NCBI GenBank assembly: GCA_038327925.1
Contig: JBBQLM010000020.1
Coordinates: 9,569-73,568 of the forward strand
Source: Burkholderiales bacterium
GTDB taxonomy: Bacteria; Pseudomonadota; Gammaproteobacteria; Burkholderiales; Burkholderiaceae_C
Length of the DNA stretch: 64,000 bases
Direction of reading: 5' to 3'
Shown: positions 4,081 through 58,651 of the stretch, piece after piece
How positions within the stretch are numbered: position 1 is the first letter of the stretch
Layout of the letters: every line of letters begins with the position of its first letter
Program-made: the position numbers and the translations under genes
Notes under the pieces: model-generated
The model's input: the letters and a program-made list of their open reading frames with translations, nothing else
Database searches by the model: none
Told to the model about the DNA's origin: nothing

Positions 4081-4124
4081 AGCCCCGCCCCACGGCTGTG
4101 CTAGCGCCGGCCAAGGACTAGTAG

Positions 4125-4181
4125 CCAAATAGGCCTCAAGCCCTCGTCATACCTGCGTATACAGCTATTGTTTTTATAGCA
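4125..4181 (-). repeat. Dispersed REP-like intergenic repeat, copy 1
   Basis: The reverse complement reads TGCTATAAAAACAATAGCTGTATACGCAGGTATGACGAGGGCTTGAGGCCTATTTGG. Nine related copies occur in the window. Confidence 0.8.
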
Positions 4182-4190
4182 TCCATACCA

Positions 4191-8464: not shown

Positions 8465-8521
8465 CCAAATAGGCCTACAGCCCTCGTCATACCTGCGTAT
8501 ACCGCTATTGTTTATGTAGCA
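8465..8521 (-). repeat. REP-like repeat, copy 2
   Basis: ccaaataggcctacagccctcgtcatacctgcgtataccgctattgtttatgtagca. Confidence 0.8.
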
Positions 8522-9292: not shown

Positions 9293-9658
9293 GGGCGGTA
9301 GCAGGGTTGTGCCGGGAATGGCCACGGGCAGCGGGGGAATGACGGGAGTGGGAATGGTGGGCGTGACCGAGCCACCCGTCACAGCGGCGGATACGCCGGC
9401 CATGAAGCCGGCAGCAAGCTGCTGGTTGCCGTTGCCGGTGCCGCCGACAATGGCTTCGCCAAGACCCCCGACAAGGAGGAAGCCACCATCGCCCATGATG
9501 CCCGCGCCAGCGCCGATCAGTGTGCTGTCAATGCTGTAATTGCCATCATTCATCGCCGAGACCGAAGTCGACGCGGCCCCCAGGGCAAGCGCCAGAAGAG
9601 GCAGCAATAAGCAGCGTCGCGGCAAGCCGCAGAAGGGTGTTTGGCGGATGCGCTTCAT
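8534..9658 (-). CDS. Secreted protein: short Gly-rich N-region + shared C-terminal module
   Basis: 374 aa with a signal peptide (...LLALALGAASTSVSAMND). The 252-aa C-terminal module is almost identical to that of 4191..8333. Its ATG overlaps the stop of the upstream GT2 gene (ATGA at 9655-9658). Confidence 0.85.
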   Translation of the reverse strand: MKRIRQTPFCGLPRRCLLLPLLALALGAASTSVSAMNDGNYSIDSTLIGAGAGIMGDGGFLLVGGLGEAIVGGTGNGNQQLAAGFMAGVSAAVTGGSVTPTIPTPVIPPLPVAIPGTTLLPPIVNMAAGEGPAFMADLVAMLSSALGQPLQPIGQNALGTVTLSGFNGGKLAFVPSNYQGGGDPRANGIYPLGDVRYQIVRNGQSLVITPALVSLDQLLALLPGVSVRQADNGVLIATFNGVTYVVQPGVQVQTDSATGAAQLVMGADGNWHFIDAQGNSQILYPAFADATALHNALLGLDGSATLSIQLDGTATIVFQGQRYTLVPDLTLAGVPTERLGQSVWQDGTGQGGKARYRMVNNQPLGTAQGVTVKP

Positions 9659-20575: not shown

Positions 20576-20580
20576 TGGTC

Positions 20581-20634
20581 AAATTAGCCTCTAGCCCTCG
20601 TATTTATTACCTATGTAGCTATTTTTTTATAGCA
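20581..20634 (-). repeat. REP-like repeat, copy 5
   Basis: aaattagcctctagccctcgtatttattacctatgtagctatttttttatagca. Confidence 0.75.
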
Positions 20635-42044: not shown

Positions 42045-42088
42045 TGATAGCAACTGAAGCATATTCCACGAGGGCCAGGGCCGAAAAT
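42045..42088 (+). repeat. REP-like repeat, copy 7 (partial)
   Basis: tgatagcaactgaagcatattccacgagggccagggccgaaaatg. Confidence 0.6.
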
Positions 42089-42168: not shown

Positions 42169-42447
42169 ATGTCCAAAGCTTCCCTCGTTTCCGCCATCGT
42201 CGCCGGGTCCATCGTGGCCCTGGCCTTTGTCCTCAACCCGTCTCCCGAACAGCACCGCACCAAGATCAAGGAGGCCATCGCCGAGCGCAGCCCGTTGGCC
42301 GGGATGCTGGGCATGGGCGCGCTCGCGGCATTCAGCTCGACCTACCACCCGCTGGGCGTGGCGTCCTACACCACGGTGAATGACCGCACCGTCTCCATCG
42401 GCGCATTGGGCATGGTGTTCTTCATACAGCCGTCGCAGGACAAGTGA
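42169..42447 (+). CDS. Small membrane protein, unknown function
   Basis: Start moved to ATG 42169 (SD AAGGAG upstream). Has an N-terminal TM segment (SLVSAIVAGSIVALAFVL). Its stop overlaps the next gene start. Confidence 0.55.
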   Translation: MSKASLVSAIVAGSIVALAFVLNPSPEQHRTKIKEAIAERSPLAGMLGMGALAAFSSTYHPLGVASYTTVNDRTVSIGALGMVFFIQPSQDK

Positions 42448-43529
42448 AAACCCGCGCTGCAATCGCCTGTGCCGCGCTGGCAGTCGCCTGGCTGGTGGCG
42501 GGCTGCACGGACACGCGCTACCTGCTGCAGTCCGCCACCGGGCATCTGCAGATCATGCAGGCGGCCCGCCCGGTGGATGACTGGCTGGGTGACGACAACA
42601 CGCCACCAACACTGAAGCAACGCCTGCAACAGGCACAGGAGATTCGGCGCTTTGCGGTGAGCGCGCTGCACCTGCCGGACAACGCCAGCTACCAGCGCTA
42701 TGCGCAGTTGCAGCGCCGCGCCGTAGTGTGGAACGTGGTGGCGGCGCCGCCCTATTCGCTGACACTCAAGACCTGGTGCTTTCCGGTGACGGGTTGCGTG
42801 GGTTACCGCGGCTACTTTGACGAGCGCGATGCGCAGGCGCTGGCCACCGAGCTGCGCGCACAGGATGGGCTGGAGGCGCGTGTCTATGGCGTGCCGGCCT
42901 ACTCGACCCTGGGCTGGACCAACTGGCTGGGTGGTGACCCGCTGCTGAGCACCTTCATCGACTACCCGCAGGGAGAACTGGCGCGCATGGTCTTCCACGA
43001 GCTGGCGCACCAGGTGCTGTATGTGAAAGACGACACCGCGTTCAACGAGTCGTTTGCCACGGCGGTGGAGCGCCTGGGCAGTGCCGCCTGGCTCGCCAGC
43101 CAGGCCGGCGCCGCGGCCCAGGCGGAATACACCGCCTTCGATGTGCGACGTCAGGCATTTCGGGCCCTGGCTGCGCGCACGCGCCAGACGCTGCTGGCGG
43201 TCTATGCACCGGATCGCCTGCCCCAGCCCAGCGCCGAGCAACTGGCAGCGCAAAAGGCCGTCGCCTATGCCGAGTTCCGCCAGGCCTATGCCGAGCTCAA
43301 GGCCCGTTGGGGCGGCTACGACCGCTATGACGCCTGGGTCGCCACCGCCAACAACGCCGCCTTTGGCGCACTGGCCGCGTATGACGAATGGGTTGGCGCG
43401 TTCGAGGCCCTGTTCCACGCCGGGTCGGACAACTGGCCGGCCTTTTACGCGGCCACCCGGCAGTTGGCCGCGTTGCCGCGCGAGGAGCGAACCGCGCGCC
43501 TGCAACAACTGAAGGCCGGGGACCGCTAG
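42444..43529 (+). CDS. Putative zinc aminopeptidase lipoprotein
   Basis: Lipobox ...AWLVAGC and HExxH (FHELAHQV). Assignment to the 'predicted aminopeptidase' family is tentative. Confidence 0.7.
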   Translation: MKTRAAIACAALAVAWLVAGCTDTRYLLQSATGHLQIMQAARPVDDWLGDDNTPPTLKQRLQQAQEIRRFAVSALHLPDNASYQRYAQLQRRAVVWNVVAAPPYSLTLKTWCFPVTGCVGYRGYFDERDAQALATELRAQDGLEARVYGVPAYSTLGWTNWLGGDPLLSTFIDYPQGELARMVFHELAHQVLYVKDDTAFNESFATAVERLGSAAWLASQAGAAAQAEYTAFDVRRQAFRALAARTRQTLLAVYAPDRLPQPSAEQLAAQKAVAYAEFRQAYAELKARWGGYDRYDAWVATANNAAFGALAAYDEWVGAFEALFHAGSDNWPAFYAATRQLAALPREERTARLQQLKAGDR

Positions 43530-43575
43530 GCCATCAGGGACAGGCGACCCAGTTGGCCGCGTGTTTACCCAATTA

Positions 43576-43631
43576 AGCTACTAGTTTGATAGCTGCATAG
43601 GCATATTCCACGAGGGCTATAGGCCGATTTG
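43576..43631 (+). repeat. REP-like repeat, copy 8
   Basis: agctactagtttgatagctgcataggcatattccacgagggctataggccgatttg. Confidence 0.8.
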
Positions 43632-43711
43632 ACTAAGAATCGCTTGGCAAACCGGGACACCAGCCACCGGCCGTCCACGGCGCAGTCTCCGTTGTAAACT
43701 TTGCAACGACC

Positions 43712-44182
43712 ATGACGCCCACCGAGTTCGCCCTCTTCAAATACCAGCATGCCGACGCGGCCATCCGCAGCCCCGCGCGGCGCTGGTTCACCGGCATCAG
43801 CTTCGGCGTGGCGCTGCTGCTCATCGCCACCGGGTTCATCGTGTTCCCTGTGAGTCTGTTCGCCCTGCTGGTTCCCGTCCTGGCCTGGACCACGGCCAGC
43901 CGCCAGTTGCTGCTGGGGCCGCGCTACCTGCTGTGCGGCCAGACCATCGTCTATTACGCCAACGTCAAGCGCCTGACCCTGTCGCGCGGCACCGGCACGC
44001 TGCGCGTGCAGTCGCACAACGGCAAGAGCTTTTTGCTGGAGCGCGACAAGTTCCCCACCAACGCGCGCAAGACCGACAAGATCAAAAAGAACAAGGCCGC
44101 CAAGTTCGACAAGGTGGCCGACAAGATCATCGAGAAAGTGCGCAACGCCAGCCCCAACGCGGACGTGATCGGCGCCGGGTGA
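43712..44182 (+). CDS. Membrane protein (2 TM + soluble Lys-rich C-region), unknown function
   Basis: 156 aa with TM segments FTGISFGVALLLIATGFIVF and VSLFALLVPVLAW. The C-region RYLLCGQTIVYYANVKRLTLSRGTGTLRVQSHNGKSFLLERDKF could be bacterial-PH-like, which is speculative. The stop shares a nucleotide with the next start (TGATG). Confidence 0.6.
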   Translation: MTPTEFALFKYQHADAAIRSPARRWFTGISFGVALLLIATGFIVFPVSLFALLVPVLAWTTASRQLLLGPRYLLCGQTIVYYANVKRLTLSRGTGTLRVQSHNGKSFLLERDKFPTNARKTDKIKKNKAAKFDKVADKIIEKVRNASPNADVIGAG

Positions 44183-45981
44183 TGATGGACCGCGCCATCC
44201 ATCTGCTGTATGTGCCCACGCTGTGCTGCAACCTGAGCTGCAGCTACTGCTACCTGGGCAAGCAGACGACCGAGGCCGCACTCAAGACCGACGCAGGGCG
44301 CGCCGTGCAGACGCTGCGCCACACGCTGGACGCGCTCCAGGCGGCGGGCGTGCTGGCCTTCAACGTCTCGCTGCACGGCGGCGAGGTGACGACACTGCCG
44401 CCGCCCGTGCTGGACGAGCTGTTCGGAATGATCCGCGCCCACTACCTGCAGCACTTCGACGCGCTCAACGCACTGGGCCACAAGAAGTCGGCGCCGCACA
44501 TCAAGACCAACCTGTTCAAGTTCGCACCGTTCTACGAGCTGTTTGACCGGCACAAGGTGTCGATCAGCGCCAGCATCGACCTGCCGCTGTCCCTGCACGC
44601 GCGCCACCGCACCACGCGCGGTGGCACCGACTGGTTGCCGCGCACGCTGGACAACATCCGCCTGCTGGCACGCTACCCGCATGCCAAGAAGATATCCGCC
44701 ACACTCAGCAGCGAACACCTGGCCGACATCCCGGCGCTGGTGAAGGACATCTGGTACATCCACCGCGAGCTGGGCTTTGACATGAACCAGTTCAACCTGA
44801 TGTTCGCCTTCGGCTCCGAGCTGAACCGCGCGGCCAAGGGCGAGGCAGTGCTCACGCCATGCGCACCCGCGCAGCAGCAGGCGTTGTACGACGTTCTGTC
44901 CAAGGAGTTCATGGGCACCGAACTGGAAGATGGGCTCAAACGCAACTGGTTCGACGAGTTCAAGCCCAGCTACTGCACCAACGCCCGCAACTGCGGCGAG
45001 CGCTTCTACCTGCTGCAAAGCGATGGCGCCGTCTACTCCTGCGTGCGCGGCCAGGGCATGGAGGCCTTTCGCTATGGCAATGTGTTCGACGACCCCATCC
45101 TGGATATTCTGGACAACGGCGCACGCAAGATCCGCCAGATCCACCAGGCGCAGGGCTTTGACTCCGACTGCCAAGCCTGTGACCACTTGAGCACCTGCAA
45201 CACCGGCTGTGCCGTCGTCAAGGTCCAGAACCAGAGCGGCAAGTCCTACACCTGCGGTTTGCAAAAGACCATCTACCGCGACAACCCGCTGTCCTACCCT
45301 GCCGATACACCCGCCGCGCGGCGCGAATATGCCCTGCACTACCAGCAGACCACGCACCCCAGCCTGGCCTTTGCGCAGCCGCCGGTGGCGCCGGACCAGC
45401 CACAGTTCATGCTGCCCAACGACATCGCCGAGCCCAAGAACACCCTGGGCGCGCTGATCGCCGCCGACCCGGTGCTGCAGGCGCTGTTCAGCGACAACGC
45501 CTTTGTGCTGGAGCTGCGCGGTGAGCTGCTGGCGCTGGACTCGCAACTCTTCAAGCAGCGGCGCACCCTGCATACGCTGGTAAACGGTGACCCACTGGTG
45601 CTGCACCTGCGCCGCGATGTGCTGCAGGCCAATTGCCCGGAAGCCATTCGCAACACGCTGTACCTGCAGCTGTTGCGTGACACGCCGGTGGTTTACGGCG
45701 ACGAGCAGCGCACCAAGCAGGAGCACATCTTCACCTACCAGCTCTACGCCAACTGCCTGGAGTCCAGCACCCGGCTGGGGGACGATTACCTGCAGTGCGA
45801 CCTGACCGGCCTGCTGGCGCTGCACCGCGCGCACTTCCAGCGTGGCGTACTCAACAACCTGTTTGTGACCACGCTGTTCCTGCGTGAGTACCACTACAGC
45901 AAGCAAAAGGCCAACGCCTTCTACCATGTGCAAACGGCCAACCTGCCGTTTCAGAACTTCGAGTTCCACTACCTGCCATGA
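44182..45981 (+). CDS. Radical SAM / SPASM-domain enzyme with unrecognised ~200-aa C-terminal extension
   Basis: Start at ATG 44182 within ORF 43933..45981. CX3CX2C motif (C16-NLS-C20-SY-C23 in MMDRAIHLLYVPTLCCNLSCSYCYLG). Cys-rich SPASM-like region (SYCTNARNCGERFYLLQSDGAVYSCVRG...DSDCQACDHLSTCNTGCAVV...SYTCG). Confidence 0.85.
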   Translation: MMDRAIHLLYVPTLCCNLSCSYCYLGKQTTEAALKTDAGRAVQTLRHTLDALQAAGVLAFNVSLHGGEVTTLPPPVLDELFGMIRAHYLQHFDALNALGHKKSAPHIKTNLFKFAPFYELFDRHKVSISASIDLPLSLHARHRTTRGGTDWLPRTLDNIRLLARYPHAKKISATLSSEHLADIPALVKDIWYIHRELGFDMNQFNLMFAFGSELNRAAKGEAVLTPCAPAQQQALYDVLSKEFMGTELEDGLKRNWFDEFKPSYCTNARNCGERFYLLQSDGAVYSCVRGQGMEAFRYGNVFDDPILDILDNGARKIRQIHQAQGFDSDCQACDHLSTCNTGCAVVKVQNQSGKSYTCGLQKTIYRDNPLSYPADTPAARREYALHYQQTTHPSLAFAQPPVAPDQPQFMLPNDIAEPKNTLGALIAADPVLQALFSDNAFVLELRGELLALDSQLFKQRRTLHTLVNGDPLVLHLRRDVLQANCPEAIRNTLYLQLLRDTPVVYGDEQRTKQEHIFTYQLYANCLESSTRLGDDYLQCDLTGLLALHRAHFQRGVLNNLFVTTLFLREYHYSKQKANAFYHVQTANLPFQNFEFHYLP

Positions 45982-46412
45982 AACCCCAAGACCTGCAACG
46001 CACCGCCTACACCGTGGAATGTTTCCTGAACGCCCTGCGTCTGGAGGACGGCAACGACCGCACCGAGGTGGAAGAGGCGCTGGTGCGCTGGCTGCTGGAC
46101 GACGCCCGCCGCAAGGACGACCACCTGATCTACCAGGACCAGACCGTTTCCTGCTACAGCCGGGGCCACGTCACCCAAAATTTTGCCGTGCCGCTGGCGC
46201 GCCAGAAGCAAACCATCTGGTGCAACGCCGACAAGCTGTCCACCATCGACGGCGCCGCGTTCAAGGACCAGGGCAAACTGGTCATGCTCGGCACCGCCGG
46301 CCTGCTGCTGGGCATGCCCGGCCTGGTAGCGGCCCAGCAGGATCGCAAGGACCGACAACGCAGCAGTAATAACAACAATAACAATAACAACAACAATAAC
46401 AACAACGGGTAG
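45978..46412 (+). CDS. Hypothetical protein with C-terminal hydrophobic segment and N13 tail
   Basis: ATGA start/stop overlap with the rSAM gene. 144 aa, ending ...LVMLGTAGLLLGMPGLVAAQQDRKDRQRSS-N13-G. No family recognised. Confidence 0.65.
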   Translation: MKPQDLQRTAYTVECFLNALRLEDGNDRTEVEEALVRWLLDDARRKDDHLIYQDQTVSCYSRGHVTQNFAVPLARQKQTIWCNADKLSTIDGAAFKDQGKLVMLGTAGLLLGMPGLVAAQQDRKDRQRSSNNNNNNNNNNNNNG

Positions 46413-46455
46413 CCCCACACGCTGGACATGGCCCCATGCGTGTGCGATGCGATAG

Positions 46456-47589
46456 CTAGCTTGCAGCAACTACGGTGTTGCGGCCCTGCTGTTTGGCCTG
46501 GTACAGCGCACCATCGACCCGCCGGAACCATTCAGCGTGGTTTTCCGCCGGCTTGAGCTCGGCAACGGCGAAGGATGCAGGCAGCAACACGGTGTTTGCA
46601 CCGTCCGCAATGGAGGTTGTGGCCAGCGTCTGGCGCAAGCGCTCGGCCAATTGCAGCGCCGCCGCCATCTCCGTCATGGGCAACAGGACCAGAAATTCCT
46701 CACCCCCCACACGTCCCAACAGGTCGCCATCCCTCAACTGCGCACCCACTGCCCGAACCGCCTCGCGCAAAGCGCGGTCCCCCGCGGGGTGGCCGTAGGT
46801 GTCGTTGATGGCTTTGAAGTGGTCCAGATCGAACATGATCAGGGAGGCACTGGTCCCGTGCCGCAGGCGTGTTGACACCAGGGTTTCCATTTGCTCCAGG
46901 GTGTGACGTCGGCTGTAGGCCCCGGTGAGCTGGTCGTGAATGACCAGGTCATTGAGCCGCTCGACCAGCGCCGCGTTGCGCGCATGATGCTCGGCATCCC
47001 GCAGGACCACCAACCCCAACGAACGCGTATAAGCCAGCTGAACGGCCAGCCCCGCCACCAAGCCCACCACCATGATGTTCGTCAATGGGCCGGCGAACTG
47101 CACAACGTGCAGCAGCGGAACCAGGTACATGCCGGCAAAGAACAATAGTGCGGCCTTGGCGTATGAGGACATGGTCACCATGCTGACGCCGGCCACGCCC
47201 ACCAGAATCGTCATCGTGGCCAGGTAGGACAGGACATCCCCTTCGCGCCAGACAAACCACACCGCGGAACCCCAGACCATGCCGCACAGGCCCGCCAGGA
47301 CAAAGTGGGTGTTCTTGCATGCCTGGCTGTCACCGTGGCTCTCCAGCGCCTTGCGACAGCGCATGCCGACCAGGAAAATGGCAGCCTCGCCGGCCGTGAT
47401 CAGCAGGGCCCAGGTTAAGGCAGGCGTCAGTCCGGCAGAGACCCACAAGACCCAGGACAACAACGCAATGCCGGCAAAGGCACTGAGCGCCCCCGTCATC
47501 GCGCGTTCATTGAAAACCCGCAGGCGTTCCGACGAAACCGCCAGGGCGATGGCCCCTTCATTCAATTCGTGGTGCGAACAGCTCTGCAT
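46456..47589 (-). CDS. Diguanylate cyclase (GGDEF) with N-terminal multi-TM sensor
   Basis: 377 aa with ~6 hydrophobic segments followed by a GGDEF domain (...YSRRHTLEQM..., RVGGEEFLVLL). Confidence 0.85.
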   Translation of the reverse strand: MQSCSHHELNEGAIALAVSSERLRVFNERAMTGALSAFAGIALLSWVLWVSAGLTPALTWALLITAGEAAIFLVGMRCRKALESHGDSQACKNTHFVLAGLCGMVWGSAVWFVWREGDVLSYLATMTILVGVAGVSMVTMSSYAKAALLFFAGMYLVPLLHVVQFAGPLTNIMVVGLVAGLAVQLAYTRSLGLVVLRDAEHHARNAALVERLNDLVIHDQLTGAYSRRHTLEQMETLVSTRLRHGTSASLIMFDLDHFKAINDTYGHPAGDRALREAVRAVGAQLRDGDLLGRVGGEEFLVLLPMTEMAAALQLAERLRQTLATTSIADGANTVLLPASFAVAELKPAENHAEWFRRVDGALYQAKQQGRNTVVAAS

Positions 47590-58590: not shown

Positions 58591-58646
58591 TGCTACTCTT
58601 TTGGTAGCTATACACGTAATATCGACGAGGGCTAGAGGCCTATTTG
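58591..58646 (+). repeat. REP-like repeat, copy 9
   Basis: tgctactcttttggtagctatacacgtaatatcgacgagggctagaggcctatttg. Confidence 0.8.
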
Positions 58647-58651
58647 ATCCA

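Follow-up and report, generated by a model that had tools for sequence, protein, structure and literature searches.

To our knowledge, nearly all known radical S-adenosylmethionine (SAM) maturases with a SPASM domain act on short leader-bearing peptides with Cys, aromatic or Lys partner residues. The anaerobic sulfatase-maturating enzymes (anSME; PDB 4K36-4K39; TIGR03942), which oxidise Ser or Cys on a protein, act on a protein substrate rather than on a leader-bearing peptide. Here we analyse a 64-kb stretch of a Burkholderiales genome (the window: 64,000 nucleotides, positions 9,569 to 73,568 of contig JBBQLM010000020.1, assembly GCA_038327925.1), in which an operon at window positions 43712-46412, all on the (+) strand, encodes a small membrane protein (orf1), a radical-SAM/SPASM enzyme of the family PHROG 1802 and a protein (orf3) that ends in thirteen Asn residues and a Gly. 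Comparison with related loci suggests that the PHROG 1802 enzymes are probably a new family of protein maturases acting on or through a C-terminal poly-Asn tag. We hold this with good confidence once the variant in which the run serves as a docking tag is included, sequence alone being unable to separate 'substrate' from 'docking tag'. The enzyme class is a known one; what appears to be new is the class of substrate, an Asn tag on folded proteins that include phage fibres, together with the recognition domain and the set of partners.

The operon is laid out as follows, with open reading frame (ORF) calls for the genes and coordinates in the window.

43712..44182, + strand: orf1, 156 aa (ORF call)
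43784..43900, + strand: hydrophobic stretch of orf1, aa ~25-63 (Kyte-Doolittle 19-residue windows > 1.6 from residue 25 to 45)
44051..44116, + strand: orf1 motif F114-V135, FPTNARKTDKIKKNKAAKFDKV
44182..45981, + strand: radical-SAM/SPASM enzyme of the PHROG 1802 family, 599 aa, ATG start at 44182
44227..44250, + strand: CX3CX2C radical-SAM cluster motif (C16, C20, C23), invariant in the family alignment
44974..45255, + strand: SPASM auxiliary-cluster region, C265 to C358, with eight invariant Cys
45424..45978, + strand: family-specific C-terminal beta-sandwich domain of the enzyme, aa ~415-599 (~185 aa), proposed as the Asn-tail recognition module
45978..46412, + strand: orf3, 144 aa (ORF call)
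45978..46313, + strand: folded carrier domain of orf3, aa 1-112, two helices and a beta-sheet (AlphaFold2 predicted local distance difference test, pLDDT, above 90 for aa 1-110)
46314..46367, + strand: disordered linker of orf3 with a basic patch (…AAQQDRKDRQRSS), residues 113-130, pLDDT below 50
46368..46412, + strand: poly-Asn tag of 13 Asn codons (9 AAC, 4 AAT), Gly and stop, proposed enzyme target or recognition tag

A first, sequence-only reading of this DNA had described three translationally coupled ORFs overlapping at their junctions, and an ORF check of the window confirmed it: the orf1 stop and the enzyme start share TGATG at 44180-44184, and the enzyme end and the orf3 start share ATGA at 45978-45981.

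The enzyme carries the cofactor motifs of both families after which it is named. Its C16-x3-C20-x2-C23 motif, the CX3CX2C signature by which the radical SAM superfamily binds its SAM-cleaving [4Fe-4S] cluster within a partial TIM barrel, is invariant in an alignment of 12 sequences reaching down to 26% identity; against Pfam Radical_SAM the window enzyme scores 18 bits (cutoff 29.5) and its homolog from the Campylobacter phage CAM-P21 45.6 bits. The SPASM cysteines form a complete and invariant set (C265, C271-x10-G282-x4-C287, C330-x2-C333-x5-C339-x3-C343, C358) in the seven-Cys subfamily arrangement CX9-15GX4C ... CX2CX5CX3C ... C, and the SPASM models are passed (TIGR04085, 40.7 bits with a cutoff of 27; Pfam SPASM, 22.3 with a cutoff of 21.5). 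The motif and the Cys-rich SPASM-like domain reported from the first inspection are therefore both real. The match to PHROG 1802 is full-length (E = 5.8e-44, residues 11-596 against profile positions 49-550 of 556) and takes in the C-terminal domain. That entry is labelled 'radical SAM domain-containing protein' and is without functional annotation. The family is small: searching 1.8 billion representatives yielded 52 clusters with an E no worse than 1e-30, and many of these are fragments.

The nearest solved structure is anSME 4K36 (E = 6e-19 over aa 10-364, family profile). As in anSME, the radical-SAM motif stands at the very N-terminus, the SPASM domain is full, with two auxiliary clusters, and a recognition element of the kind used for peptides that are synthesised on the ribosome and modified post-translationally (RiPPs; RiPP recognition element, RRE) is lacking. 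The enzyme is nevertheless not a member of that family (TIGR03942, 65 bits vs 349; NF010308, 39 vs 484; NF010321, 39 vs 441). It differs further in having no sulfatase or C/S-x-P-x-R target nearby, an extra ~185-aa beta-sandwich, and a partner that ends in poly-Asn.

No curated NCBIfam equivalog was reached, scores being 25-70 bits with cutoffs of 265-650. The best match was TIGR04083 (69.8 bits, cutoff 300), and the enzyme fell below the cutoffs of DynA, DarE/DarW, PapB, AmcB, GrrM/OscB, YhhB, FxsB, XyeB, HxsB, CbpB, QhpD, MftC and TIGR04083. The sequence-only reading, which depended on the enzyme belonging to no characterised family, held in this collection. Among the best partial matches, at 25-64 bits, were DynA (dynobactin, NF041298), PapB (NF047865) and the cyclophane formers AmcB, GrrM/OscB, YhhB, FxsB and XyeB, but these scores are far below the cutoffs of 310-450 (DynA, 64 vs 450). 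Such RiPP maturases take short leader-dependent substrates with an aromatic or Cys partner, whereas here an Asn-only tag sits on folded proteins of 76-689 aa, and unlike RiPP systems the operon is without RRE, transporter and protease. No PqqD match was found in Pfam at E up to 1, and there is no space for an N-terminal RRE because the radical-SAM motif starts at residue 16. Instead of the RRE and short leader precursor of a leader-dependent RiPP maturase, the operon has a C-terminal domain that is an all-beta sandwich, not a winged helix, and partners of 144 and 156 aa.

The described maturases do bear on the chemistry that could be expected of an Asn tag. DynA joins Trp to the Asn beta-carbon, NxxcB joins Cys to the Asn beta-carbon, and three-residue cyclophane formers often take Asn as the third residue, so that hydrogen abstraction at the Asn C-beta has precedent. 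The mycofactocin proteins MftC/MftB (TIGR03962) are alike in concept, a SPASM enzyme working on the extreme C-terminus of its substrate with a small accessory protein, and the phage loci described below also have a helper. Here the differences are that MftA ends in Val-Tyr and not in an Asn run, and that the enzyme scores 25 bits with a cutoff of 265. In the literature covered by our search, from which many subscription papers fell outside, nothing was found linking radical SAM/SPASM enzymes with poly-Asn, Asn-rich tags, tail fibres or prophages.

The three genes travel together. Across 36 species-level genomes carrying the enzyme, orf1 lies upstream of it in 35 (it was not found in L007) and orf3 downstream in 35, and the intact trio is present in about 34, with L006, in which a contig end cuts orf3, taken into account. 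As a rule, neighbouring genes overlap or are separated by no more than about 45 nt. The hosts include Rhodoferax, Ca. Aalborgicola, Simplicispira, Giesbergeria, Propionivibrio, Azonexus, Sterolibacterium, Undibacterium and Fluviicoccus, a span of Comamonadaceae, Rhodocyclaceae, Undibacterium and Fluviicoccus to which one Desulfuromonadales locus (orf1 and enzyme) is added. The enzyme is the most conserved of the three (60-95% identity; partners, 33-97%), and its closest relatives, at 94-95% identity, are Rhodoferax-like metagenome-assembled genomes (MAGs), which places the window in a Comamonadaceae genome. Since no further flanking gene is common to more than 6 loci and the flanks vary between genera, the trio behaves as a self-contained module; biosynthetic, transport, cofactor and sulfatase genes were not found among the conserved neighbours. 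Conserved synteny with both neighbours, on which the sequence-only reading also depended, is thus observed.

The Desulfuromonadales MAG (L034 3175-8186) shows a different arrangement. Between orf1 and the enzyme stand two inserted genes, for a 251-aa unclassified protein and for a 434-aa protein that is DprA/Smf-like by eye only; orf3 and the Asn run are absent, and a 95-aa signal-peptide protein follows the enzyme instead.

The C-terminus of orf3 (...RKDRQRSS-N13-G-stop) is widely kept. In 33 of the 36 genome loci the protein closes with N(6-27)-G-stop, even where identity over the remainder of orf3 falls to about 34%; the three loci without this end are L006 (contig end), L013 (read-through) and L034 (no orf3). 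Most complete members of 89 metagenomic orf3 clusters end in N-run-G too. Nowhere else in the window do four or more AAY codons follow one another. Within the tract AAT accounts for 31% of the codons (4/13), compared with about 8% (5/60) of the Asn codons outside the tract in six window genes, and the order of AAC and AAT varies between loci while the Asn run persists. Judged by these codons, the tail is under selection at the level of the protein.

The remainder of orf3 is a folded carrier. Alignments show conserved RTAYTVECFLNALR, C59, W81-C82 and LVMLGTAGL, with C15, C59 and C82 near-invariant, and the linker differs among homologs in both length and sequence. AlphaFold2 models tail and linker as disordered and attached to a confident globular domain, for which Foldseek found no PDB match (best E of 1); orf3 is also without a Pfam, NCBIfam, PADLOC or PHROG match. 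The 144-aa protein ending in a basic patch and N13-G had been recognised correctly from the letters. The 'hydrophobic segment' placed before them had not: it is modelled as a beta-strand (LVMLG) of the folded 110-aa domain, which is followed by the disordered linker, and there is no clear transmembrane (TM) helix. A TM anchor in orf3 is supported neither by the model nor by hydropathy.

Assemblies are error-prone at the Asn run. L021 has a gap inside it (about 4100-4183), and L013 (8178-8345) reads through it (N13-R…) for 40 more codons. In the long-read MAG L032 (1914-8067) the enzyme is frameshifted and the orf3 match lies 3.9 kb downstream of it.

What becomes of the partners when the enzyme is lost can be seen in a subgroup of orf3 homologs of 122-145 aa that have no tail. 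Seven loci from four lineages of a sister, Rhodoferax-like clade (L047-L053) share the order aldo-keto reductase, orf1', 2-nt gap, orf3' (for example L047 4534-5372), and no enzyme was found within the 3-10 kb examined per locus. The same reductase, at 95-98% protein identity, flanks the enzyme-bearing loci L026, L009 and L035, and L026 also has the downstream two-component genes (response regulator, histidine kinase) of the enzyme-less loci. Because the flanks match in this way, the enzyme-less state is a derived one that arose by clean deletion. Both linker and Asn tail have disappeared from these loci and the orf1 motif has decayed, while the remainder of both proteins, including the conserved cysteines of orf3, is kept. 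Faster overall decay of orf1' and orf3' was not seen, the ratios of nonsynonymous to synonymous substitution rates (dN/dS) being similar (0.11-0.38 without the enzyme, 0.05-0.31 with it). Purifying selection thus persists without the enzyme, so that the orf1'/orf3' pair has a function of its own, and by this comparison the features tied to the enzyme are the Asn tail and the orf1 motif.

The orf1 protein has a conserved N-terminus (FxxFKYQH), predicted to be cytoplasmic, then a TM hairpin and about 50 aa rich in beta structure, and towards its C-terminus the Lys-rich motif. Its single 39-residue hydrophobic stretch is consistent with a TM hairpin, and we infer that it forms two helices; with the Lys-rich region this agrees with the original description of a 156-aa 2-TM protein with a Lys-rich tail. 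Where the enzyme is present, F114, P115, T116, A118, R119, K123, I124, N127, K128, K131 and F132 of the motif are (near-)invariant. In the enzyme-less loci it has degenerated to FPRSTRVAESLLKKPTTRFEEL and similar sequences, while the rest of orf1 is kept. Since its motif tracks the enzyme, orf1 is a real partner rather than a bystander; since it is nonetheless missing from other lineages of the family, it is best regarded as a lineage-specific accessory, most likely a membrane tether. It is without a Pfam, NCBIfam, PADLOC or PHROG match. The orf1 family comprises 187 clusters, and source-named homologs of orf1 and orf3 are all 'hypothetical'.

Proteins with C-terminal Asn runs recur in the contexts of family members at only 26-43% identity, which include Firmicutes-like genomes, phage-like metagenome and virome contigs and Campylobacter prophages; the members whose neighbours carry the runs stand at 31-43%. 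At 43% identity (L046, GC 58%) a downstream 120-aa protein ends TWT-N10-G, and at 36-38% (L070-L073, Firmicutes-like, GC 23-27%) a downstream protein of 120-124 aa ends SGGSSS-N12-16-R. A protein neighbouring the enzyme ends …NNNGNNNNSCSGGW in L074, GNNNSKCSG in L045 and SSNNNNNNRG in L056/57; in L041 a collagen-like protein ends YNNNNNGNNH. The L042/43 contig begins with …N14-G-stop, followed by a 76-aa ORF and the enzyme. L044, a locus with Mu-like head genes, encodes a 173-aa protein ending GGGGGGSGPNNNF (GPNNNF), a 200-aa helper (PHROG 10241), the enzyme and a tape-measure protein. In CAM-P21 an annotated tail fibre (Pfam Phage_tail_fib, 4e-40) ends GSTNNNNY and is followed by a 211-aa helper and then the enzyme. 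Six related prophages have fibres of 296-689 aa with varied distal sequence, which end NSTNNNNY, GATNNNNY, GSSNNNNY, STGNNF, SMGNNS and SSGNNF, a pattern of [ST]-x-N2-4-[YFS]. Further viral scans with P0126 and P0133 gave no additional loci.

The position of these runs is regular. The 13 phage-like loci yield 260 six-frame ORFs, of which 8 show three or more consecutive Asn within their last 12 residues; each of these 8 is on the same strand as the enzyme and stops 248-645 nt upstream of it. Helpers of 140-211 aa separate the tail-bearing gene from the enzyme; they are not RRE-like by Pfam, and were rejected as homologs of orf1 or of the orf3 carrier domain (hhalign probabilities below 1%). 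Homology between the proteobacterial and the Firmicutes-like carriers was likewise not detected: profile-profile comparison aligns only the S-N-run, so the tail is the sole feature common to the partners. The enzymes of L046, of the Firmicutes-like loci and of all phage loci, from which orf1 is absent, keep every invariant residue of both domains.

Compared with the phage members of PHROG 1802, the window copy is chromosomal, has its tail gene downstream rather than two genes upstream, and has a membrane partner in place of the phage helper. Because the phage enzymes sit two genes downstream of Asn-run fibres and proteins, the chromosomal trio can be read as a cellular version of a wider 'Asn-tag maturase' system. 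Core and beta-sandwich motifs combined with an adjacent Asn-run product, the features by which we propose to define that system, are found in the window, in 33 of the 36 loci and in about ten further lineages; L034, L037-L040 and L055 are exceptions. The slot directly after a tail-fibre gene, the P2 G / Mu U' position, normally holds fibre assembly factors, and in CAM-P21 and the related prophages it is filled by helper and enzyme. These differ from tail-fibre assembly chaperones in that no sequence similarity to known Tfa families was found, and no radical-SAM enzyme is known to us among the chaperones of tail fibres. The proposal from the sequence-only reading, that one of the two partners, most attractively through the Asn-rich C-terminus, is the substrate of a protein-modification system, gains support from tail retention (33/36), co-loss and distant recurrence, and is widened by orf1 as a real partner and by the connection to phage tail fibres.

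Two observations concern the gene neighbourhoods of these relatives. In L070-L073 (for example L071 2055-7151) enzyme and carrier stand between a BspA-type leucine-rich-repeat membrane protein that has a zinc ribbon and a 2-TM protein of 340 aa with zinc ribbons, and these membrane neighbours may play the role that orf1 has in proteobacteria. In CAM-P21 (L054 10736-11122) a DUF1353 protein (Pfam 7e-18) is the product of the gene that overlaps the enzyme at its 3' end; next come a gene for a hypothetical protein of 337 aa and then the sheath gene.

The ~200-aa C-terminal extension that could not be placed from the letters is real and conserved. It contains 13 invariant residues (N491, Y505, G506, K512, H515, T564, H571, N578, Y581, H582, Q584, N587 and P589) in the motifs YGDExRxKQEH and NAFYHxQxxNLPF, which family-wide take the form YGDExRxKxxH and NAFYHxQxxNxP, and the AlphaFold2 model of the domain is a confident beta-sandwich (pLDDT 84.7). 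Profile searching of PDB sequences with the domain gave nothing better than E = 0.4, and Foldseek with its model against PDB and BFVD returned only generic Ig-like sandwiches (TM at most 0.3). As the sandwich is the one family-specific feature of the enzyme and the Asn run the one common feature of the partners, the simplest assumption is that these two go together, the sandwich binding the tail, and we infer such a role for it.

These data allow us to propose how the module might work. The operon would be a self-contained protein-maturation module, in which the enzyme, with one SAM cluster and two auxiliary [4Fe-4S] clusters, would work in the cytoplasm on folded orf3 and recognise its extreme C-terminus: small or hydroxyl residues, the Asn run and a lineage-specific last residue, here Gly. 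That the last residue is fixed within each lineage (G, R, or Y/F/S) suggests that the free C-terminus is part of what is recognised. The beta-sandwich, through its invariant His, Tyr, Asn, Gln and Lys, would bind the run and feed it to the active site. The 5'-deoxyadenosyl radical would then take a hydrogen, from C-alpha or C-beta, of residues in or next to the run, and the outcome could be a crosslink, an epimerisation or an oxidation. As a third component orf1 would probably hold either the enzyme or the tail, once modified, to the inner membrane. In this scheme the tail as the modified site, the sandwich as its binding domain, the chemistry and the physiological role are all predictions from the comparisons above.

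A more far-reaching version may be put forward tentatively, and we doubt it somewhat more than we believe it. Here the family would install a new modification on homopolymeric Asn tags, as serial C-C/C-N crosslinks or alternating epimerisation, which would stiffen the tail into a protease-resistant structure; phages would use it to finish or arm their fibres, and bacteria would have co-opted it with a membrane partner. If this were true, radical-SAM enzymes would gain a new chemistry, and the assembly of phage tail fibres its first maturation step carried out by a radical enzyme.

Several points weigh against a maturase of poly-Asn tags. The support consists of sequences and models, and sequence does not reveal the attacked atom. 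The residues with which crosslinks are usually made (Cys, Trp, Tyr, Lys) are missing from poly-Asn, so that none of the known SPASM chemistries can be transferred directly to the tag. For the role given to the C-terminal domain, the support is co-distribution. The persistence of orf1 and tail-less orf3 under purifying selection without the enzyme indicates a function that does not need the modification. The co-loss is probably a single event, its loci not being statistically independent, and so counts as one data point, though one maintained over substantial divergence. Finally, three lineages of the family (L055, L037-L040 and L034) have no adjacent Asn run.

Two of these lineages have particular neighbourhoods of their own. 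On an IMG/VR phage contig (L055 3764-5004) the protein encoded two genes upstream of the enzyme has a Cys-rich end (…CALCASCSGCPCSYSFPACKRDIYYNRYEWR) and no Asn run, and this end may be an alternative type of substrate for the same enzyme family. The most distant member, at about 26% identity, comes from Trout Bog lake metagenomes (L037-L040; for example L038 33-5534) and has no Asn-run neighbour; beside it are genes for a 156-228-aa protein, a 199-aa helper-like protein, a 2-oxoglutarate (2OG)-Fe(II) oxygenase, a 259-aa protein and a second radical-SAM enzyme of 430 aa, which may make up a variant multi-enzyme maturation cassette.

Of the other explanations, the one that survives best makes the Asn run a docking 'follower' tag only, with the chemistry taking place elsewhere, for example at the preceding Ser/Thr, in an anSME-like oxidation to the aldehyde, or at C15, C59 and C82 of orf3. 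The kinship with anSME, whose targets are Ser or Cys on a protein, fits such a role, as does the small or hydroxyl residue that usually precedes the run (SSN, NSN, STN, SSSN, TWTN), and orf3 does offer three near-invariant cysteines. Those cysteines, however, are not enzyme-dependent, since tail-less orf3' keeps them where the enzyme is gone; the residue that precedes the run varies from lineage to lineage (GPNNNF, GYNNNNN, IGINNN, TGNNF); and the carriers share nothing detectable but the tail. We regard this explanation as unlikely.

It is also conceivable that the enzyme does not target the run, which might instead sense Asn-tRNA supply during translation, act as a degron, promote aggregation as a 'polar zipper' or be a contingency repeat prone to slippage; the enzyme would then make or modify something unrelated, such as a small molecule or cofactor. 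A length that ranges from 6 to 27 between genomes is what would be expected of a trinucleotide repeat, we know of no SPASM chemistry on poly-Asn, and tail-less orf3 is still functional judging by its dN/dS. On the other hand, mixed AAC and AAT codons in locus-specific orders damp slippage and indicate selection on the amino acid, and the run recurs on carriers without detectable similarity beside the same enzyme family and vanishes with the enzyme. An attenuator-like role of the Asn codons is ruled out because the run stands at the end of the operon's last gene, with a convergent gene beyond it, leaving nothing downstream to attenuate. For an enzyme of small-molecule or cofactor metabolism, biosynthetic, transport or cofactor genes conserved nearby are missing. 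This explanation is very unlikely.

We see a slimmer chance still that orf1 is the substrate or co-substrate, its Lys-rich motif being modified or Lys-Asn-linked to the tail so as to fasten orf3 to the membrane protein. The motif, with the consensus FPTxARKxxKIxxNKxxKFxKV, is nearly invariant alongside the enzyme and decays specifically on its loss, and SPASM enzymes that act on Lys are known, as in the Lys-Trp crosslink of streptide. Nevertheless, L046, the Firmicutes-like loci and all phage loci do without orf1 although their enzymes retain all invariant residues, and the phage helper is unrelated to it, so that orf1 is not the general substrate of the family. That the trio is a phage-derived conflict system, such as a decoy for or inhibitor of tail-fibre maturation, rather than a housekeeping module deserves hardly any credence: the enzyme family is a PHROG whose deeper branches are phage-borne beside tail fibres, and the genomic context differs between genera, but no PADLOC defence model was matched beyond ~15-bit pVip, the window flanks are ordinary chromosomal genes, and the module looks vertically inherited within Comamonadaceae, with flanks conserved in related genomes.

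If the poly-Asn tail is indeed what a PHROG 1802 maturase acts on or through, a bare C-terminal poly-Asn tag on folded proteins would point to a class of substrate for which we found no precedent, and probably to new chemistry. Fibres of the Campylobacter and related prophages with swapped receptor-binding regions all keep the Asn tag, which suggests an unrecognised enzymatic step in a host-recognition organelle and bears on the engineering of phage host range. The proposal is directly testable, with three small genes and one easily tracked tryptic peptide, SSN13G, and the clade in which the enzyme was deleted naturally provides a ready comparison for finding out the physiological role. Protein engineering could also gain a tool, in the form of a short genetically encoded tag and the modifying enzyme dedicated to it.

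The operon's surroundings in the window are of an ordinary chromosomal kind, with genes for an aminopeptidase, a GGDEF protein and a two-component system. The gene convergent on the operon encodes the GGDEF protein (Pfam 3e-39), as had been read from the letters. A PF10023 putative aminopeptidase with an HExxH motif is encoded at 42444-43529, on the same strand and 182 nt upstream, and its linkage to the operon is kept only in the closest relatives, L001-L003. For this reason it was ruled out as the missing protease of the system, of which it is probably not a part; its presence next to the operon corrects the first description of an isolated unit. In PADLOC-DB only a 15.5-bit pVip match (enzyme residues 15-72) was found, and none for orf1 or orf3. 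Nothing above chance came from Rfam searches (E up to 1) or from scanning 43300-46700 for promoters and terminators.

The 'REP copy' reported beside the operon (REP, repetitive extragenic palindromic) is only partly borne out. The spacer upstream of orf1 (43601-43633) contains a short REP-like segment of 17-23 nt (…ACGAGGGCTATAGGCCGATTTGA…) that is repeated at five or more other window sites, on both strands. Its copies are as follows.

about 42059-42075, 58625-58647, 8466-8487, 20578-20601 and 4126-4147, both strands: copies of the 17-23-nt spacer repeat, REP-like

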